Of a stretch of 64,000 nucleotides of DNA, positions 13,470 through 61,984 are shown one piece after another. The translations under genes and the position numbers were made by a program. The stretch comes from a bacterium. Lineage in GTDB: Bacteria > Patescibacteriota > Minisyncoccia > Moranbacterales > GWC2-37-73. The notes under the pieces were generated by a model. It ran no database searches and was not told where the DNA came from. It was given only the letters and a program-made list of their open reading frames with translations. Numbering within the stretch: position 1 is the stretch's first letter; every line of letters begins with the position of its first letter. The stretch is taken from NCBI GenBank assembly GCA_037140955.1, contig JBAXDL010000002.1:28176-92175 (forward strand). Reading direction: 5' to 3'.

Positions 13470-13630
13470 ATTTTTTTATTTTAATTATAAAAAATAATTT
13501 TTAATTTTTAATTTTCACCCTGCGGGTGCGAGTAATTTTATAAATAAATCATAATGTTTTAATTTTTTAAACATTAGAAATTTAAGAATTATTTAAAAAT
13601 TATAAAATTAAAAATTAAAAATTTTGCAAA

Positions 13631-13946: not shown

Positions 13947-14288
13947 TCAACTCTTTTTTCTTAATGTAATTATACTTGATCCTAAAATATTTGCTATTTC
14001 TTGCGTTTCCTTTAAAATTTTCTCAGCCTTTTCTTTTTCTGCTTTTTTAGTGTCCCGCAATAATCCTAACCAGAATTTTGTTTCATTTGCAGACTTAAGC
14101 GCATAACTAAAAAAATTTGCAAAATCTTTCCTGGAGGCACCAGCTTGCGCTTCAACAATATTTGCACCAATACTAGTTGCGCTTCTCAATAATTGCTTTG
14201 AAATAACTTCAGTACTGAAATCTCGCTTATTTAATCCATCAACAAACATTATGACATCAATTGCATAGAAATATGCTCTGTGCTTCAA
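13947..14288 (-). CDS. Four-helix-bundle protein (23S rRNA intervening-sequence protein / Avd-like family)
   Basis: LLRSATSIGANIVEAQAGASRKDFANFFSYALKSANETKFWLGLL is the family hallmark. Confidence 0.6.
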   Translation of the reverse strand: MKHRAYFYAIDVIMFVDGLNKRDFSTEVISKQLLRSATSIGANIVEAQAGASRKDFANFFSYALKSANETKFWLGLLRDTKKAEKEKAEKILKETQEIANILGSSIITLRKKS

Positions 14289-17528: not shown

Positions 17529-17637
17529 ATGAAAAACTATAAACTAAAAGTGCAAAACTAAAAGCAATCTAGTCTTACCTTTTTATTTTTTTATATTTTA
17601 TACCTTTAACTTTTCGCCTTAAGCTTTACACTTTCAG

Positions 17638-18567: not shown

Positions 18568-18634
18568 ATTTTTTAGTCCATAAAGTCAAAAGTCACAAGT
18601 CCTTAACGCTTGATGGACTTTTAGCTTTTAGCTT

Positions 18635-23055: not shown

Positions 23056-23083
23056 TGTCATTCCCGTGAAAACGGGAATCCAG
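23056..23083. repeat. 28-bp inverted-repeat arm (left), itself a hairpin
   Basis: tgtcattcccgtgaaaacgggaatccag. It is the exact reverse complement of 23420-23447. Confidence 0.85.
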
Positions 23084-23085
23084 CC

Positions 23086-23397
23086 CTAATTTATTTCACT
23101 TTTATAATATTCTTTAGCCAAATCTATCCAATCAGGATTTTCTTTTTCAATCAATACTGTCTTCCATTGCCTGTTCCATTTTTTTAATTGCTTTTCCCTT
23201 AGTAATGCAGAGGTTATATCATTTGTGGTTTCGTAATAAACCAATCTACCAACATTATATTTTTCAGTAAAGCCTTTTACTGTTTTATTTTTGTGTTCCC
23301 AAATTCTTTTTATTAAATTACTAGTCATTCCAATATAAAGAGTTCCATTTCTACTACTTGCTAAGATATATACAAAGTAAGTTTTTTGTTGATACAT
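23086..23397 (-). CDS. GIY-YIG nuclease family protein (YhbQ / UPF0213-like, about 100 aa)
   Basis: YFVYILASSRNGTLYIGMTSNLIKRIWEHK has the GIY...YIG motifs plus the conserved R/E. Confidence 0.8.
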   Translation of the reverse strand: MYQQKTYFVYILASSRNGTLYIGMTSNLIKRIWEHKNKTVKGFTEKYNVGRLVYYETTNDITSALLREKQLKKWNRQWKTVLIEKENPDWIDLAKEYYKSEIN

Positions 23398-23419
23398 ATT
23401 AGATTAATTTGTGTCAAAC

Positions 23420-23447
23420 CTGGATTCCCGTTTTCACGGGAATGACA
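23420..23447. repeat. 28-bp inverted-repeat arm (right)
   Basis: ctggattcccgttttcacgggaatgaca. Confidence 0.85.
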
Positions 23448-24336: not shown

Positions 24337-24489
24337 AGCATACAAAAATCCAAAATCCAAATGTCAAATCTCAAATAAATGACTTAAGTTCAAATATTTA
24401 AAATCTAAAAAATTTTGATTTGGGATTTTATTTGAAATTTGAAATTTTGATTTTGAAATTATAACAAATAATCAAATCACAAATTTATA

Positions 24490-25134: not shown

Positions 25135-25264
25135 TGTAAAATTTTGAATTTCGAATTTTGAATTTCGAATCAAGTTCGAATTTTTAATGATTAAAATATT
25201 TAAACATTAAAGGTTTATTCAAAATTAAAAATTTTAAATTAGAAATTCGAGCAAGGCGAGGCAT

Positions 25265-26536: not shown

Positions 26537-26618
26537 TATTTTAGCTTTTAGATTTTAGCTGCTAGTTTTTAGTCCAAAGTGGCATCCAACCTAGAAGCTA
26601 ATGCCTATTGGCCAAAAA

Positions 26619-27618: not shown

Positions 27619-27978
27619 TTAAAATTGAAGCCCACCCTCTCGCGCTCCATCTGCAAGCGCTTTAACTTTTCCATGATATTGATACCCAGCTCTATCAAAA
27701 GTAATCGTTTCAATCTTAAGAGCTTTACATTTCTTAGCAACCAAGATTCCAACTTCTTTTGCTCCTTCAATTGTGTTGGCAGCATTTTTGATTTCTGAGA
27801 GTTTAGCACTTGCTAAAGTTTTTCCTACAGCATCATCAATAACTTGAGCATAAATACCTTTTAAGCTCTTAAACACAGCCAAACGTGGACGTGTTGCTGA
27901 TCCTGAAATCTTTGCACGAACTCTTCGTTTTCGTTGTAATCTACCACTGTTGCTACTTATTTTATTCATACTTATCAT
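27619..27978 (-). CDS. rplR: 50S ribosomal protein L18
   Basis: RKRRVRAKISGSATRPRLAVFKSLKGIYAQVIDD. Confidence 0.88.
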   Translation of the reverse strand: MISMNKISSNSGRLQRKRRVRAKISGSATRPRLAVFKSLKGIYAQVIDDAVGKTLASAKLSEIKNAANTIEGAKEVGILVAKKCKALKIETITFDRAGYQYHGKVKALADGAREGGLQF

Positions 27979-28065
27979 GAATCATGGAGCATGGAGTCTT
28001 TAGCATTTCAATGCTGCAACACTCTACGCTTTATGTTCTATGTTTTATGCGCTATGTTATATTGT

Positions 28066-28602
28066 TTACTTTGATGACTTCTTACCCTCTTTTCTTCTTA
28101 CATGTTCTCCAACATATTTAAATCCTTTTCCCTTGTATGGCTCAACTGGCTTAAGTGCTCTGATGTTAGCAGCAAATTGACCAACACTGTGCTTGTCATT
28201 TCCACTTACACTCATAACATTTCCTTCAATCACAACCTCAAGATCATCTGGAACAGTAACCACGACTGGATGTGAAAATCCGAGTGCAAGAGTAATTGTC
28301 TTTCCTGCGATAGCCATACGGAAACCAACTCCATTCAATTCAAGTTGTTTTTTGAATCCGCTCACCACTCCTTCAATCATATTTTCAATCCTACGAGCTG
28401 TAGTACCCCAAAGAGCTGGAACATTTTTCCCTCTGCCTTCCTTTTCAACTGTGAATTCTTTTTCTCCAAATTTAATCGAAACATCAAGATGATGTTCAAA
28501 TTTAAGTGTGCCTTTTGGGCCAACAACGGTAACAACATTTTTATCTGTAGTCACGCTCACACCTTCAGGGATAGCTACGGGTTTTTTTCCAATTCTACTC
28601 AT
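28066..28602 (-). CDS. rplF: 50S ribosomal protein L6
   Basis: MSRIGKKPVAIPEGVSV... two L6 repeats. Confidence 0.9.
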   Translation of the reverse strand: MSRIGKKPVAIPEGVSVTTDKNVVTVVGPKGTLKFEHHLDVSIKFGEKEFTVEKEGRGKNVPALWGTTARRIENMIEGVVSGFKKQLELNGVGFRMAIAGKTITLALGFSHPVVVTVPDDLEVVIEGNVMSVSGNDKHSVGQFAANIRALKPVEPYKGKGFKYVGEHVRRKEGKKSSK

Positions 28603-28609
28603 ATTATAT

Positions 28610-28693
28610 TAGTCAAAAGTCTTTCAAGTCTTTCAAGTCTTTCAAGCCAAAACATTTGCTTTATGGACTTTTTGACTTTCGACTTTATGGACT
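28610..28693. repeat. Intra-operon repetitive element, copy A (rpsH/rplF spacer)
   Basis: tagtcaaaagtc + 3x tttcaagtc + linker + ctttatggactttttgactttcgactttatggact. About 85% identical to copies B and C. Confidence 0.8.
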
Positions 28694-28706
28694 CGCTTAT
28701 TATTAT

Positions 28707-29111
28707 TTACCAAAGCTCACAAATTACCTCTCCACCTAGACCTAGTTTTCTTGCCTTATCTCCAGTCATCATACCTTGAGATGTTGAGATAATTGAGATA
28801 CCATATCCATTTTTGACACGCTTAATGTCAGTCTTTTTCACATAAATGCGCTGTCCTTGACGACTAACACGCTTAATTTCTCGAATTGCAGGATTTTTCT
28901 CAGTGTTTGAAACAACTTCATATTTCAAAACAATCTTAAGCACTGGAAAAGTTTCACCCATTTCTTTTTTCACAGATTCAATGAAATTTCTTTGCTCTAA
29001 AATTTTAGCAATAGACAGTTTCAATTTCGAAAAAGGCACTGACACTTCTTTGTGCTTTACCATCTGCGCATTTCGAATTCTTGTAAGCATGTCTGCTATT
29101 GGATCTAACAT
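28707..29111 (-). CDS. rpsH: 30S ribosomal protein S8
   Basis: MLDPIADMLTRIRNAQMVKH. Confidence 0.9.
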   Translation of the reverse strand: MLDPIADMLTRIRNAQMVKHKEVSVPFSKLKLSIAKILEQRNFIESVKKEMGETFPVLKIVLKYEVVSNTEKNPAIREIKRVSRQGQRIYVKKTDIKRVKNGYGISIISTSQGMMTGDKARKLGLGGEVICELW

Positions 29112-29157
29112 ATTCTAATTCTTTATCCTAATTATAATTATAAACACTTAAACATTT

Positions 29158-29343
29158 TTACCAACTGCTCTTTGTTACTCCTGGCAATTCACCTCTGCTT
29201 GCCAATTCTCGAAAACAAATTCTGCAGATATCGTAGGCACGAAGATAGCCATGCTTACGACCACATCGCCAACAACGGCGCACAATCCTGGTTGAAAACT
29301 TAGGTGTCTTCTCTGCTCGAGCTTCTGTAGATGTTTTAGCCAT
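29158..29343 (-). CDS. rpsZ: 30S ribosomal protein S14 type Z (Zn-binding, 61 aa)
   Basis: [21 protein letters not shown]4 zinc form. Confidence 0.9.
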
Positions 29344-29364
29344 ATAAATTCTTATATCAATTAT

Positions 29365-29922
29365 TTATTCGCTTTTTAGCGGAAATCCTAGTAATTTAAA
29401 CAATTCCAAACCTTCTTTTTGACTGTGTGCATTTGTTGAAACGGTAATTTGCATTCCGAATGGGTATCTAACTTTTTCTGGAGATATTTCTGGGAAAATA
29501 ACATGTTCTTTAAGTCCAATGTTCAAATTTCCACCAGTATCCACAGCTTTCCTATTTATTCCTTGGAAATCTCTAGTTCGTGGAAGAGTAGCGCTAACAA
29601 CTCTATCAATAAATTGCCACATTCTAGCTCCTCGCAAAGTAACTTTCACTCCAATTTCCATTCCTTCACGAATCTTAAATCCAGAAATAGCTTTCTTTGC
29701 TTTTGTTTTTACTGGTTTTTGACCAGTAATTGCAGTAAGCGCAGCAACAACTTCCTCGATCTTATCATTTTCCTTAACAATTTTTCCTATTCCGACATTA
29801 ACAACAACCTTCTGAATCCGAGGAACAGCCATGACGCTTTTATAGCTAAACTTTTGTTTCATTTCAGCTACAGCTATTTTGATGTATTTCTCTTTTGCTG
29901 GAGTTATATTCATACGATTCAC
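29365..29922 (-). CDS. rplE: 50S ribosomal protein L5
   Basis: Position plus ...NLNIGLKEHVIFPEI... typical L5. Confidence 0.88.
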   Translation of the reverse strand: MNRMNITPAKEKYIKIAVAEMKQKFSYKSVMAVPRIQKVVVNVGIGKIVKENDKIEEVVAALTAITGQKPVKTKAKKAISGFKIREGMEIGVKVTLRGARMWQFIDRVVSATLPRTRDFQGINRKAVDTGGNLNIGLKEHVIFPEISPEKVRYPFGMQITVSTNAHSQKEGLELFKLLGFPLKSE

Positions 29923-29951
29923 TTAAGACAAATAAATTAGAAAACAAATTA

Positions 29952-30257
29952 TTACATTTCCTTACCACATTTTTTACAAACTCTCACTTTTTTCTCATTA
30001 ACAGTGGCATATGAAACTCTGGTTGCTTTGCCACATGCTGGGCAAATAATCATAGCATTTGAAGCATCAAATGGTGCTGCAATCTCAACTCGTTGCCCTT
30101 GCTGTCCTTCTCTACGAGCTTTTTGGTGCTTGGTCACGATATTGATTTTTTCAACCACAATTTTTCCCTCGCTTGGCACAGTTCTAACAACTTTTCCTTG
30201 TTTTCCCTTGTCCTTGCCAGCTATTTTTTTTACGAGGTCTCCTTTTTTAATTCGCAT
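29952..30257 (-). CDS. rplX: 50S ribosomal protein L24 (Cys4 zinc-ribbon C-terminal form)
   Basis: MRIKKGDLVKKIAGKDKGKQGKV... and a C-terminal CPACGK...CKKCGK. Confidence 0.88.
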   Translation of the reverse strand: MRIKKGDLVKKIAGKDKGKQGKVVRTVPSEGKIVVEKINIVTKHQKARREGQQGQRVEIAAPFDASNAMIICPACGKATRVSYATVNEKKVRVCKKCGKEM

Positions 30258-30294
30258 ATATTTTAGTCAAAAGTCTTTTTACAGACCACAATTA

Positions 30295-30660
30295 TTATAA
30301 TACTTCAGGTGCCAATGAAACAATCTTAGAAAATCCTTTTTCACGCAATTCTCTTGCAATTGGTCCAAAGATACGAGTTCCCTTTGGCTCCTTGTCATTC
30401 AAAATAACAGCTGCGTTCTCATCAAATCGGATATATGAACCATCTTTTCTGCGAATAGCCTTTTTTGTTCTCACTACTACAGCTCTAACCTTGTCTCCTT
30501 TTTTAACCAAACCTCTAGGTTCAGATGACTTTACAGAGCAAACAATAATATCACCAACAGAAGCATATCGTCTGCGAGATCCACCAAGCACTTTAAAGCA
30601 CTCAATGATTTTTGCGCCTGAATTATCAGCTGCCTTCAATTTTGTTTCTGCTTGAATCAT
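30295..30660 (-). CDS. rplN: 50S ribosomal protein L14
   Basis: [17 protein letters not shown]... Confidence 0.92.
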
Positions 30661-30666
30661 ATATTT

Positions 30667-30753
30667 TAGTCAAAAGTCTATCAAGTCTATCAAGTCTATC
30701 AAGCAAATGCATTTCTGCTTTATGAACTTTATGGACTTTCGACTTTATGAACT
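30667..30753. repeat. Intra-operon repetitive element, copy B (rpsQ/rplN spacer)
   Basis: tagtcaaaagtc + 3x tatcaagtc + ...ctttatgaactttatggactttcgactttatgaact. Confidence 0.8.
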
Positions 30754-30761
30754 GATATTAT

Positions 30762-31016
30762 TTATGCTATTACTTTGTGACTCTTGTCCTTGCTAATTGG
30801 TTTACACTGTGAAAATTCAACCTTATCTCCTTTTTTGAACTTATTATCCTCATCATGAACTTTGTATTTCACAGTTGAGCGATATTTTTTAAGATATTTA
30901 GGATGAGTTTTAAGAGACTCAACAGCAACAACAATTGTTTTGTCCATTTTGTCACTAACAACTATTCCTTTTTTCTTAGCTACTTTTTTCATAGTATTTG
31001 TCATATATCTTTTCAA
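30762..31016 (-). CDS. rpsQ: 30S ribosomal protein S17
   Basis: KKGIVVSDKMDKTIVVAVE...KYKVHDE. Confidence 0.88.
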   Translation of the reverse strand: MKRYMTNTMKKVAKKKGIVVSDKMDKTIVVAVESLKTHPKYLKKYRSTVKYKVHDEDNKFKKGDKVEFSQCKPISKDKSHKVIA

Positions 31017-31032
31017 TGCCTTCTAAAAATAA

Positions 31033-31227
31033 TTACTTTTGAACGCTACGCTCAGTTAAGATAGTAAGCGCGCGAGCAATGTCAGTCTTAATTGCGCGAT
31101 ACTGCCTATGATTCTTCATCTGACGAGCAGCAATGTCGAATCTAAGCTTAACAGCTTGAGTTCTTTTTTCAGCGAGCATTTTTTTCAATTGCTCAATGTT
31201 CATATCTCTAATTTCCTGAATTTTCAT
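31033..31227 (-). CDS. rpmC: 50S ribosomal protein L29
   Basis: MKIQEIRDMNIEQLKKMLAEKR... Confidence 0.85.
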   Translation of the reverse strand: MKIQEIRDMNIEQLKKMLAEKRTQAVKLRFDIAARQMKNHRQYRAIKTDIARALTILTERSVQK

Positions 31228-31233
31228 ATGCTT

Positions 31234-31319
31234 TAGTCAAAAGTCTTTCAAGTCTTTCAAGTCTTTCAAGCCGATGCATTTCTGCTTTATGGACTTTATG
31301 ACTTTCAACTTTATGGACT
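31234..31319. repeat. Intra-operon repetitive element, copy C (rplP/rpmC spacer)
   Basis: tagtcaaaagtc + 3x tttcaagtc + ...ctttatggactttatgactttcaactttatggact. Confidence 0.8.
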
Positions 31320-31329
31320 GCAATTATTC

Positions 31330-31743
31330 TTATTTTTCCTTAACTACAAACTTTGTCTTGATGTTTAGCTTATGTGAAGCTAGTCTCATTGCCTCCTTGG
31401 CAATTGCCTCAGTGATGCCATCCATTTCAAACAAAACTCTTCCTTGCTTAGTTTTTGCCACAAAGTGATCAACACTTCCCTTTCCTTTACCCATGGGAGT
31501 CTCATCACCTTTTTTGGTCATCGGCTTATCTGGAAAAATTCTGATCCAAATTTTACCACCGCGCTTAACGTATCTTGTCATTGCTCTACGAGCAGCTTCG
31601 ATTTGTCTTGCTGAGATTAATCCTGAAGTCATGGCCTTAAGACCAAAGCTACCAAAACTAACTGTGTTGCCAGTCTGAGCAACTCCACGGATTTCTCCGC
31701 CTCGGTGAATCTTCCTATGTTTAACTTTTTTCGGCATCAACAT
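31330..31743 (-). CDS. rplP: 50S ribosomal protein L16
   Basis: [16 protein letters not shown]... Confidence 0.9.
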
Positions 31744-32461: not shown

Positions 32462-32530
32462 AATTTTATAAATCTCTAATTAACTGTATTTTTTATCACT
32501 TATTATTTTTAAACTTCTCTTTTGTCGAAT

Positions 32531-33475: not shown

Positions 33476-33535
33476 AATTTTCTTTAATTAGTTTATTAAT
33501 TCCTTAGTCTTTTCGGAGCTAAGAAACCATTTTAA

Positions 33536-38697: not shown

Positions 38698-38769
38698 TTT
38701 ATTTTTTTATATATTTATATATAAAAATTATACCACAAAAAAATGATATTCTAAAAAAATGTGTAGAAC

Positions 38770-38797
38770 CTGGATTCCCGCCTTAGTGGGAATGACA
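38770..38797. repeat. Third (solo) copy of the GIY-YIG-associated hairpin repeat
   Basis: ctggattcccgccttagtgggaatgaca. It shares ctggattcccg...gggaatgaca with the 23420-23447 arm; only the loop differs. Confidence 0.75.
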
Positions 38798-38842
38798 AAA
38801 ATAAAAAAACAGCCCCTTGCGAGACTGTTTTTGAAAAGTGTT

Positions 38843-39313
38843 TTATGCTTGATGCGATAATGATAAGTTTTCCAGCTTCACAACACGTTTTTCAAGTCTT
38901 TCAAATTCCTGGGCATCCACCTTGCGTTTGAGCTCAAATTTCACTTCGACCATATCATCCTGCAGCCTGTCTATCTTGGTTTCAACCAGTTCAAGTTTAT
39001 CATCAATTCCATCTAGCCTATTGTCTATGCCATCAAGCCTATTGTCGATTCCATCAAACCTACGGTCAATACCATCGAATCGCTTATCGATTGCCTCGAA
39101 TTTTTGATCAACATTTTCAAATTTAATCTCCATGCTTTCTGCAAGCGTTGAAAGATTTTCATCAAATCTCTCCATTAAGACACCCAATTGCTCGAATTTC
39201 CTATTAGTATTTTCAGATATAGCATTTAAGGACACATCAAATCTTTCAATCATCAAGCCAACCTCATTTGCAGTAAATGTTTTTTCTTCAGTTTTGTTTG
39301 ATTGTTTTTTCAT
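38843..39313 (-). CDS. Coiled-coil protein with tandem heptad repeats (RFDGID x5)
   Basis: KRFDGIDRRFDGIDNRLDGIDNRLDGIDDKLE, encoded by 21-bp tandem DNA repeats at about 39009-39092. Confidence 0.5.
   Translation of the reverse strand: MKKQSNKTEEKTFTANEVGLMIERFDVSLNAISENTNRKFEQLGVLMERFDENLSTLAESMEIKFENVDQKFEAIDKRFDGIDRRFDGIDNRLDGIDNRLDGIDDKLELVETKIDRLQDDMVEVKFELKRKVDAQEFERLEKRVVKLENLSLSHQA
39009..39092. repeat. 4 x 21-bp in-frame tandem repeat within the coiled-coil gene
   Basis: ccatctagcctattgtctatg / ccatcaagcctattgtcgatt / ccatcaaacctacggtcaata / ccatcgaatcgcttatcgatt. Confidence 0.8.
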
Positions 39314-39422
39314 ATGTTTATTGTTTAGTGAAGTGAGAGAAATGAAATAGCAATTTCATTTCCGAGCGAACGACAACAACAAGATTCCTCTTATTTTATA
39401 ATTATAAATCGACTGCGTCAAA

Positions 39423-39716: not shown

Positions 39717-39906
39717 ATTTTTTTCAATCCCATCAAATCAACTTGTTGGTAATTTGCTTGAGATTCTCTATTTATTATTTATTTTCTCTTTGAGCATTGG
39801 CCACTGCTCATGATGTTATTATATCACTGATATGTGACCACTGCAATAGTCTGCAATGTGGATAACTTGAGATGGGATGCCAATGTTGACATTTTTGCTT
39901 TCAATA

Positions 39907-39941
39907 AAACAAAAAAACAGCTTCTTGCGAAGCTGTTTTTT
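39907..39941 (-). terminator. Rho-independent terminator after fusA
   Basis: cagcttc-ttgc-gaagctg stem with A-run and T-run flanks. A similar hairpin aacagccccttgcgagactgtt lies at about 38803-38826. Confidence 0.5.
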
Positions 39942-39972
39942 GAAAGTGTCTTATTTTTCCTAAAACTAAAGA

Positions 39973-42060: not shown

Positions 42061-42248
42061 AGTTCATTAAATTTCTAATTTCTAATTTACAATTTCTAAT
42101 CAAATCCCAATTCATTAATTGATACATTAAAGAATTCAAAATTCATTCAAAATTCAAAATTCAAAATTCAAAATTTTTATTATTAATTTTTGTTGATTAT
42201 ATAAACAAAGATAGAAACTCCCCATGAAAGAAGTTTCTATCATAAATA

Positions 42249-42716: not shown

Positions 42717-42868
42717 AAATTCAATTAATTTCTAATTTTGTAATTTTGTAATTTTTAAATAATTTTTTAATTTCTTAATGCTTTAAGCATTGAAGAATTT
42801 GAATTTATTTAAAAATTAAAAATTGTAAAAATTAAAAATTGTAAGTCCTAATCTTTAATTATATATAA

Positions 42869-43291: not shown

Positions 43292-43623
43292 AACGCGCTT
43301 CGCTTTAATTTCTAATTTCTAATTTCTAATTTCTAATCAAATCTTAATGACCAAATTTCAAAAAATAAAATTGAAAAATTATAAGTTCAATTTTTAATTA
43401 CTTGTAAATACACAAAAATTCTCCTAAAAAACCCTTATTGCAAAAGCAATAAGCAAAAATATGATGCTATTTTGAAATCCCAACCAGAACGAAGTGAGCC
43501 TCAAATAACATCTTTTTATACAAAAAACAGCTAGTAAACTAGCAAAACTATTCTACACAATTATCAAATTTATGTCAACCATGAGCAGCTTTTTAGGCAT
43601 CAAAATTCGAAAAATCCAAAAAA

Positions 43624-61632: not shown

Positions 61633-61984
61633 GTGTTTATTAAATTTCCAATTTCCAACTTTAAATTTTCAATGAAATTCAAAATTATAAATTCAAATTT
61701 CCAATTTAATTTTTAATTTTTTTGTTTTTGATTTTTTATCGCAAATGCAACAAAAAAAGACATTACAATAAAACTTGACAACTTTTATTTTTCACTTTTT
61801 TTGAAACTTGACTTTTTTGATTTTTGTGTACTTTTATACTACATGTTGTGTATTACTAGTTCATTATACCACAAGCCAATAATATGCCAAGCATCCCATT
61901 TTAAGCTATTTTTCAAAGTTATGCACAGAAAAAACTCAAAAAAAACAACCCATTTCCATGAATTGTTTTTTTGATTTTAATTTT

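Follow-up and report, generated by a model that had tools for sequence, protein, structure and literature searches.

Three hairpin cassettes in the S10/spc operon

The DNA analysed here, a 64-kb stretch that we call the window, belongs to a metagenome contig of 147 kb (ERZ27300110 k141_511937; 36% GC) and carries the S10/spc ribosomal-protein operon of a member of Candidatus Moranbacteria on its minus strand. Pfam searches identified the genes for L6, S8, S14, L5, L24, L14, S17, L29, L16 and S3 in canonical order, and showed that three copies of a composite repeat lie at the junctions S8/L6 (rpsH/rplF), S17/L14 (rpsQ/rplN) and L16/L29 (rplP/rpmC), where all of the genes are on the minus strand. 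The spacers at these junctions are 104, 101 and about 101-102 nt long, and every one of them holds a single ~88-nt copy of one sequence, which agrees with the description given when the window was first read from its letters alone (the sequence-only reading). That reading overlooked that the three copies, which we call family A, are one family within a far larger class of elements found in many other spacers of the window and of its relatives. Elements of this class are cassettes of ~80-100 nt that take up the whole spacer from stop codon to ATG, and in which a short loop joins a 5' arm of 3-4 units to a partly complementary 3' arm. The cassettes behave as repeats of the repetitive extragenic palindromic (REP) or miniature inverted-repeat transposable element (MITE) type: there are many families of one architecture, with quick turnover and supra-neutral conservation.

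On the transcribed strand, the layout of a family A spacer is stop codon, 8-13 nt, AGUCCAUAAAGUCGAAAGUCCAUAAAGUCCAUAAAGC, a loop of ~12 nt, GCUUGAAAGACUUGAAAGACUUGAAAGACUUUUGACU, 7-8 nt and AUG, such that each copy consists of four AAGUC-containing units, the loop and four GACUU-containing units. Copy 1, at S8/L6, has four AAGUC-type units and a loop followed by three repeats of CUUGAAAGA and by CUUUUGACU, and ends 7 nt from the rplF ATG (28602). In copy 3, at L16/L29, the RNA 3' arm, loop and RNA 5' arm lie at ~31234-31272, ~31273-31284 and ~31285-31319, respectively, in plus-strand coordinates. Copies 2 (S17/L14) and 3 were 90% identical in the repeat search (group D5), and the lower score of copy 1 in that search was due only to an indel. 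Tandem Repeats Finder (TRF) detected a perfect array of 3.3 repeats of 9 nt in all three copies (AAGTCTTTC, AAGTCTATC and AAGTCTTTC in copies 1, 2 and 3, respectively), and degenerate arrays of 8-9 nt in the opposite arm of copies 2 and 3. The 12-mer TAGTCAAAAGTC, allowing up to one mismatch, occurs five times and on one strand only, as compared to an expected 0.42 occurrences; none of 100 shuffled sequences matched this number. The outer ends of family A, AGTC(C/A)(A/T)AAAG ... CTTTTGACT, are inverted but are simply the outermost pair of units, and the 3' tail of the copies is ACUAAAAUAUAUG.

The arms of the three copies are 77-91% complementary, bearing out the earlier observation that the two halves partly match each other. 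Folding of both strands, which had been proposed as a check, yielded one long, irregular hairpin of ~80 nt per copy on either strand. The family A hairpin has ~26-32 bp and is built from four AAGUC:GACUU helices of 4-6 bp with internal loops between them. The minimum free energies on the transcribed strand were -23.4, -23.7 and -24.6 kcal/mol for copies 1, 2 and 3, with z = -3.9, -3.4 and -3.2, respectively, and none of 200 dinucleotide shuffles was equally stable. The opposite strand folded with about equal stability.

Occupancy, turnover and conservation of the cassettes

A search with L5 placed the window in Candidatus Moranbacteria (Parcubacteria; candidate phyla radiation [CPR]/Patescibacteria) and retrieved 22 related loci, covering part or all of the operon, with which we compared it. 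The comparative data come from one operon in metagenome-assembled genomes (MAGs), copies within one family are mutually dependent, family counts are from BLAST to representatives, and genes outside the ribosomal-protein operon are crude open reading frame (ORF) calls. The lengths of the 19 operon spacers in Moranbacteria are bimodal, at either ~1-60 nt or ~85-120 nt, and gaps of 70-139 nt make up 44% of co-directional gaps in Moranbacteria loci versus ~10% in other loci. Outside Moranbacteria the spacers are mostly shorter than 30 nt, consistent with the earlier statement that they are normally a few base pairs long. As many as 17 of the 19 junctions are filled in relatives. Three loci (L008, L011 and L015) have a ~100-nt spacer at almost all junctions, and two (L013 and L040) are nearly without elements, the only long spacer in L013 being that at L15/SecY. 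This last junction is filled in most of the Moranbacteria examined, with ~60-110 nt (194 nt in L012), and its unit sequences are unlike even between L004 and L005. The L16/L29 spacer, which holds copy 3 in the window, measures 2 nt in L003, 10 nt in L004 and L005, 96 nt in L006 and 104 nt in L008. Among the ribosomal-protein spacers of 75-135 nt, 156 of 185 form one dominant hairpin of at least 16 bp (median span 80 nt). The median distance of this hairpin is 5 nt from the preceding stop codon and 9 nt from the ATG that follows.

The long spacers share one architecture, two arms of 3-4 tandem units of 7-11 nt, but fall into at least 10 unrelated sequence families, and both arms are invariably expanded together. 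The paired units are AAGUC and GACUU in family A, AACUAAC and GUUGUAAG in family B, UAGUUAA and AACUAAUC in family C, CGAAU and AUUAGGAU in family D, CGCGAAUCG and AUUAGAGAU in family E, GUUCUAAAUGUUGUAA and ACAAUUAGAAC in family F, CAUAGAAC and CAUGCUCC in family G, UACGAAU and AUUCGUA in family H, and AAUUUUC and AGAAAUU in family K. No simple unit pair describes family M, and family J is an ordinary palindrome, unlike the tandem-unit families. One or two families are dominant in each genome. Family A was also found, always in the same orientation, in L020, L007, L018 and the metagenome contigs L089 and L130; a metagenome scan for this family gave 53 matches, of which only those in L089 and L130 are true copies and most others are coding sequence or simple repeats, and a viral scan for it returned unrelated repeats only. 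Similar elements occur sporadically in other CPR groups, namely in L025, L029, L032 (Yanofskybacteria), L033 and L075 (Magasanikbacteria); the class is thus present, more sparsely, in other Parcubacteria-type CPR bacteria.

The cassettes turn over rapidly between close relatives. In the pairs L004/L005 and L015/L016, which are ~89-90% identical at 4-fold sites, 18 of the 34 comparable spacers differ, in that they contain an unrelated element, are filled in one genome versus short in the other, or are less than 85% identical. In the coding sequence that borders these changed spacers, identity is 97-98% as far as the stop and start codons. Distant pairs gave the opposite picture. The window and L020 are 57% identical at 4-fold sites, and their S17/L14 copies are 96% identical over 101 nt; for L011 and L018, with 47% identity at 4-fold sites, elements are 91-97% identical at four junctions and 95-97% identical at three; for L014 and L017, with 58% identity at 4-fold sites, the elements are identical at 92 of 92 positions and 98% identical. 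In these three pairs, mismatches in the flanks resume 4-29 nt from the element. Import of spacers by ordinary homologous recombination is unlikely, given flanks that are 97-98% identical in the close pairs and that diverge within 4-29 nt in the distant ones.

Conservation of these elements extends to the loops, which, like the arms, are far more conserved than synonymous sites. Copies that are at least 90% identical are found at different junctions of different species. At the same time, variants specific to one locus are common to distant genomes: GAUAGA replaces GAAAGA in all three 3'-arm units of the S17/L14 copy in both the window and L020, and in part in L130. The presence of this variant in all units of one arm indicates that units within an arm change in concert. 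The comparison with relatives therefore supports the proposal that repeats colonised a normally compact operon, since occupancy and family vary among close relatives and the copies are dispersed. Together, these sequence comparisons point to families that are either constrained and spreading in the manner of REP or MITE consensus sequences, or subject to strong selection on the sequence itself.

Native sequences of the operon may be the source of some families. The ribosomal-protein genes are without canonical Shine-Dalgarno sequences, and leaders are conserved across the clade before S8 (AAUUAGGAUAAAGAAUUAGAAU-AUG; 29112-29157, S14/S8) and before S3 (AAUUAGAGAUUUAUAAAAUU-AUG; 32462-32530, L22/S3). 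Both leaders resemble 3'-arm units of families D and E: family D units match the conserved S8 leader, and the 3' end of family E (AAUUAGAGAUUUAUAACAUU-AUG) differs from the native S3 leader at just one position in 20. Where the native leader is retained at S14/S8, the element lies between the stop codon and the leader. A short hairpin at L2/S19 is conserved in structure, not in sequence, across 11 Moranbacteria, with both sides changed in five of eight pairs and with G.U pairs on the sense strand. In L008 this hairpin is expanded into tandem units and corresponds to family C, such that the native L2/S19 hairpin is probably the seed of one element family. More generally, we infer that the families were seeded by slippage from native intercistronic hairpins or leaders, and would then have been copied to other junctions.

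In the window itself, folding of all spacers together with TRF revealed the same build with different units in at least 12 further spacers, and there are ~15 elements of the class in 64 kb, every copy being intergenic (Table 1). Degenerate fragments of the composite repeat had been reported at three places. At two of these the report was sound in substance: the 37-nt L14/L24 spacer contains a deletion remnant of family A, and the spacer between the TIM and FBP-aldolase genes contains a short related element. The third, at L15/SecY, belongs to a different family. The L14/L24 junction has a full family A copy in L020, and L004 retains the 5' end only.

Table 1. Cassettes, remnants and related hairpins in the window, with the evidence or distinguishing sequence for each.
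Feature	Position	Strand	Evidence and details
Family A copy 1, S8/L6 (rpsH/rplF)	28610..28697	-	sequence, repeat search, Pfam, fold, TRF; spacer 28603-28706
Family A copy 2, S17/L14 (rpsQ/rplN)	30665..30753	-	sequence, repeat search, fold, TRF, relatives; GAUAGA variant in 3/3 3'-arm units; spacer 30661-30761
Family A copy 3, L16/L29 (rplP/rpmC)	31233..31319	-	sequence, repeat search, fold, TRF, arm complementarity; spacer 31228-31329
Family A deletion remnant, L14/L24	30258..30294	-	both outer ends kept, UAAUAAUUGUGGUC...AAAGACUUUUGACUAAAAUAU
Short related element, TIM / FBP-aldolase genes	18568..18634	-	mixed AAAGCU and AAAGUC units, GACUUUUGACU
Family G element, L6/L18	27979..28065	-	CAUAGAAC/CAUGCUCC units; fold, TRF, relatives
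Element of another family, L15/SecY	26537..26618	-	AGCUAAAA units; fold, TRF, relatives
Tandem-unit hairpin of another family, Met-aminopeptidase / adenylate-kinase genes	24337..24489	-	7-nt units; fold, TRF
Tandem-unit hairpin, adk / secY	25135..25264	-	AAUUUCG/AAUUUUG 7-nt units; repeat search, fold, TRF
Tandem-unit hairpin and terminator-like hairpin, S7 / EF-G	42061..42248	-	UUUUGAA x6 ... UUAGAAA x4; fold, TRF
Tandem-unit hairpin, S12 / S7 genes	42717..42868	-	8-nt units; fold, TRF
UUAGAAA x4 array and partner arm, upstream of S12 gene	43292..43400	-	repeat search, fold, TRF
Tandem-unit hairpin, upstream of nrdR-like gene	61633..61740	-	AAUUUGA ... UUGGAAA units; repeat search, fold
Long A/U-rich tandem-unit hairpin, spacer	13470..13630	-	UUUUUAA/AAAAAUU units; repeat search, fold
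Spacer hairpin dependent on G.U pairs	17529..17637	-	-26.0 kcal/mol on the transcribed strand vs -5.1 on the antisense strand
Native short hairpin, L2/S19	33476..33535	-	compensatory covariation across relatives

Several other repeats and structured spacers were seen in the course of these comparisons. The palindromes of family J (UCGUCGCUCGCUCGGAAAUGAAA...UUUCAUUUC...) occur in both orientations, at 39314-39422 of the window, at 6550-6645 of L004, and in L006, L009, L020, L007 and L014. At L5/S14, family J fills the spacer in L004 and is absent from the empty spacer of L005, which suggests insertion right after the stop codon with duplication of (A)ATAA. The L5/S14 spacers of L012, L015 and L016 are larger (166-171 nt) and contain a structured-looking sequence, ATAAATTGTGATGGCTGTCCCGC...GCGGGACGCTC..., that is not of the tandem-unit kind; it is 92-94% identical across genomes with saturated synonymous sites. 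Two-arm AAGTC/GACTT hairpins that look like family A were found in unrelated contigs, at L087 10230-10340 and L092 7400-7500 (61-62% GC contigs), L102 8360-8488 and L112 2600-2690; one of these hairpins lies between divergent genes beside a terminator, and one follows a TraG-like gene.

The window also contains repeats of a different kind. A 103-aa GIY-YIG nuclease ORF (23086-23397, minus strand) lies in a region (23056-23440) with inverted copies of a GC-rich hairpin, TGTCATTCCCG-N6-CGGGAATCCAG, on both sides, and a third, solo copy of this hairpin is located 15 kb away at 38746-38797. This arrangement has the look of a minimal mobile unit, and its nuclease gene is the sole gene of nuclease type near repeats in the window. 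Two copies, 84% identical, of a hairpin that resembles a terminator and has conserved flanks (AAAACAGCnnCTTGCGAnnGCTGTTTTT) lie at 38798-38846 and 39906-39954 (repeat group D20). Finally, a gene for a protein of the 23S_rRNA_IVP family (Avd-like four-helix) is found at 13947-14249, amid NiFe-hydrogenase maturation genes.

RNA-level and DNA-level explanations

Our tentative reading, to which we assign somewhat less than even confidence, is that the three copies represent one family, A, of intercistronic hairpin cassettes that are dispersed throughout the Candidatus Moranbacteria lineage, resemble REP elements and short tandemly repeated repetitive (STRR) sequences, and would be co-transcribed with the operon and tolerated or used by virtue of their hairpin. 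Transcription, folding in vivo and coupling would proceed as follows. The cassettes would be transcribed inside the operon mRNA, where the long imperfect hairpin would draw together the stop and start codons that lie close to its foot. The last 3'-arm unit and the A/U-rich tail would form the initiation region, masked by the hairpin until a ribosome that terminates at the upstream stop codon melts the outer helices and exposes this region, which would couple translation by RNA unfolding. Coupling through unfolding of RNA is established, and coupling is otherwise known to weaken quickly as stop and start codons move apart (PMC12548453). A hairpin that keeps the stop and start codons adjacent would make a ~90-nt insertion compatible with translationally coupled ribosomal-protein cistrons, and coupling of this kind would explain why only hairpin-forming inserts are found at the junctions, why they span the spacer exactly, and why they are tolerated in ribosomal-protein operons. 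As an additional possibility, the hairpins may have a REP-like effect on mRNA stability or undergo RNase III-type processing.

The substitutions at paired positions of family A are mostly C-to-U or A-to-G, with wobble pairs kept (~12 cells keep the pair versus 4 that break it). A role as RNA is also supported by the constant position of the elements relative to stop and start codons, their uniform orientation, the strongly sense-specific folding of some spacers (such as that at 17529-17637) and the covariation of the native L2/S19 hairpin. However, a number of observations weigh against a role of the cassettes as RNA hairpins. Across 171 elements, there is no class-wide signature of the sense strand (402 G.U versus 497 A.C oppositions), and the arms are only ~68% Watson-Crick complementary. 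The sense strand is on average only 1.0 kcal/mol more stable than the antisense strand, and in families B, C and G it is the antisense strand that folds better. The invariant parts of family E are periodic CGAAU and AUUAG cores, and RNAalifold recovered no arm-to-arm helix in this family. We observed no compensatory double changes within family A, and none that were double-sided in family E. The 91-100% identity across saturated divergence exceeds what simple selection for a hairpin predicts. Pfam results, which cover ~84 kb of the contig, include no transposase, RAYT or PF01797-type domain, and there is no consistent target-site duplication (TSD) at copies of families A or E. Moreover, a published screen found that structure just 3' of the stop codon lowers coupling (PMC12548453).

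Some of these observations also speak for a mobile element that acts at the level of DNA, an explanation that we regard as unlikely but as having a real chance of being correct. The arms would be inverted arrays of short protein-binding sites, as at the ends of Tn7, Mu or hAT-type elements or in REPIN/PATE-type elements, mobilised in trans by a transposase or nuclease, and the RNA hairpin would be a by-product. Consistent with this, the unit cores are invariant and the linkers variable, the arrays are direct within arms and inverted between them (AAGTC and GACTT in family A), those of family E (CGAAT x4 and ATTAG x4) have a period of 10-11 bp, and the wobble bias expected of a sense-strand structure is absent. 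Family sequences are kept across species with copies at non-orthologous sites, gain, loss and replacement are quick and restricted to the spacer, and the filled and empty family J sites point to a possible duplication of (A)ATAA. Every copy so far assigned with confidence to families A-I, K and M points the same way, as would result from strand-specific single-stranded DNA transposition. Nearly all genes of the contig and loci also run one way, however, and orientations with respect to transcription and to replication are inseparable there. By contrast, the missing transposase or RAYT in the Pfam results for ~84 kb of contig, the lack of convincing terminal inverted repeats (TIRs) plus TSDs in the tandem-unit families, and the unit periods of 7-9 bp in most families, which do not match the helical repeat, argue against a DNA element. 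The cores of the two arms also differ systematically (CGAAT versus CTAAT), which would be odd if one binding specificity were at work, the 10 or more families would require many specificities in genomes of roughly 1 Mb, and locus-specific variants are common to distant genomes. Uniform orientation relative to transcription also speaks for a cis-regulatory RNA, whose units would bind an oligomeric RNA-binding protein (TRAP- or HutP-like) or a trans-acting RNA. The bound factor would co-regulate or process the cistrons of operons with high expression, possibly by cleavage of the RNase III type, which acts on intercistronic hairpins in the early mRNA of phage T7. We consider this unlikely. Conservation far above that of synonymous sites, loops included, the fixed distance to the start codon, the covariation and sense-strand G.U pairs of the native L2/S19 hairpin, and the sense-specific folding of some hairpins (that at 17529-17637, Table 1) are in its favour, as is a slightly better match of 3' arms than of 5' arms to a generic 16S 3' tail, which is not that of the host (p = 0.003). 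The energies of that match are weak, however, and 4 of 11 families show the reverse, such that we rejected the 3' arm as an array of Shine-Dalgarno-like sites (the 16S tail being taken from general knowledge). Close relatives that lack elements, or have unrelated families at the same junctions, indicate that no single specificity is required; L013 and L040 are almost element-free; and there is no G.U excess over the whole class. Nor did Rfam identify a known family, with no matches at the gathering score in the window and, at E<=1 in 27900-31500, only a chance match to bxd_5.

Neutral simple-sequence expansion in situ, by slippage in each spacer with neither dispersal nor function, had been named as the refuting scenario in the sequence-only reading. 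The arms are true tandem arrays, unit variants are homogenised within an arm, and one family resembles an expanded native hairpin, all of which speak for it. Nonetheless, we judge this explanation very improbable: near-identical copies turn up at different junctions, both inside one genome and in different genomes, identity is 91-100% where 4-fold sites are saturated, length is held tightly near 100 nt, and arms are always expanded as a pair. Copies that are far more conserved than synonymous sites contradict neutral expansion, and the conservation and dispersal data taken together rule it out. Internal promoters of the sigma-70 type, which would re-start transcription in a long operon, are scarcely credible. 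The TTGACT and TTGAAA hexamers on which this idea was based do exist on the transcribed strand, and copy 2 contains a consensus-like site (TTGATA-17-TATGAT, 10/12). This is the only one of the three copies to score, and it does so solely through its GAUAGA-variant units; its -10 element overlaps the rplN start codon, which would place the transcript start inside the gene. Other families are without such hexamers, and the regional count of promoter-like sites (46 versus 32.7 +/- 5.7 in shuffled sequence) reflects an AT-rich background. Attenuation or termination, also suggested previously, does not fit the copies either: the hairpin is not followed by a U-tract, and none of the copies contains a terminator-like site.

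A more far-reaching possibility, which we think quite unlikely, is that Moranbacteria, and perhaps other Parcubacteria, have a dedicated, active system that writes exchangeable cassettes precisely between stop and start codons. Such cassettes, tandem-unit hairpins seeded from native leaders, would be copied from junction to junction and from genome to genome by a mechanism specific to a site or structure, and would be indispensable for coupling or processing, with an oligomeric factor reading them. If true, they would represent a new kind of operon punctuation and not a passive repeat.

Few bacterial gene arrays are as compact and conserved as ribosomal-protein operons, and CPR genomes are among the smallest. 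Cassettes of ~100 nt at nearly every junction in some species are unexpected in the compact operons of small genomes, as is the finding that they are exchanged between close relatives yet nearly identical in distant ones. If the hairpin makes the insertions harmless, the cassettes would be a natural experiment on the limits to which stop and start codons may be moved apart in sequence with their spatial coupling kept. If the cassettes are actively copied, CPR bacteria would conceal a mechanism of mobilisation. Either way, the cassettes provide strain-level markers, and they are a source of misassembly and annotation trouble in CPR MAGs.

Relation to known repeat systems

The REP, BIME and REPIN elements of Proteobacteria are short extragenic palindromes that often lie in operons and are co-transcribed, form genome-specific families, and have been proposed to stabilise mRNA. 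The cassettes are similar in being extragenic and present in many copies, and in keeping their consensus between species while the occupied loci differ. A REP unit, however, is a single imperfect palindrome of 20-40 nt, and a REPIN a pair of these, whereas the arms described here are tandem arrays of 7-11-nt units. The cassettes also differ from REP elements in the coexistence of many unrelated families, the exact filling of the interval from stop to start, and the CPR host; no RAYT was seen in the Pfam results for ~84 kb of contig. MITEs, such as the Correia elements of Neisseria, ERIC, RUP and BOX, are non-coding, intergenic, co-transcribed elements of ~100-150 bp with inverted symmetry. Among them, the Correia hairpins are cut by RNase III, and BOX contains an internal module that is repeated in tandem. 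For the cassettes, no clear TIR-plus-TSD structure was found and no related insertion sequence was seen in the loci examined; unlike MITEs, they have arms of short tandem units and many families with one architecture.

Cyanobacterial STRR sequences are tandem intergenic repeats of ~7 bp with the capacity for hairpin formation, those between hupS and hupL being one example; their function is described as unknown, with transcript stability or translational coupling proposed (PMC2670836). The cassettes share with STRR sequences the short tandem repeats in intergenic DNA and the capacity to form hairpins. They differ in that the hosts are Moranbacteria and not filamentous cyanobacteria, and in that the 7-11-mer units are unrelated. 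In PMC2670836, STRR sequences are presented as arrays and not as stop-to-start cassettes with two matched arms, and the text consulted mentions neither saturation of ribosomal-protein operons nor turnover of families. Mycobacterial interspersed repetitive units (MIRUs) are intercistronic, oriented with transcription and seemingly mobile, and downstream expression is kept by translational coupling (PMC12548453). A MIRU does so with an ORF of its own, whose ends overlap the flanking stop and start codons; no ORF is conserved in family A, where the hairpin would serve instead. We rejected a coupling ORF of the MIRU type for these copies, as the 5' arm contains several stop codons, several copies have no ATG in the loop, and the frame varies.

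TIGR arrays are common in CPR bacteria and consist of 5-15 units with repeats of 8-12 nt, two alternating repeats being separated by variable 9-nt spacers; they adjoin a gene for the Nop-domain protein Tas and end in a terminator (PMC12045711). A TIGR array was rejected for the cassettes, which have identical units without spacers, arranged in two inverted arms between housekeeping genes. No Nop-domain family appeared in the Pfam results for the called genes, several of which have no Pfam match at all. We found no description of elements like these in CPR/Patescibacteria in a literature search whose coverage was incomplete, such that a prior description is possible; the class of fast-turnover spacer elements is apparently undescribed so far. 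Tandem-unit arms, many families with one architecture, occupancy from stop to start, and saturation of ribosomal-protein operons are together the hallmarks of the Moranbacteria cassettes, and none of REP, STRR, MIRU or MITE unites them.

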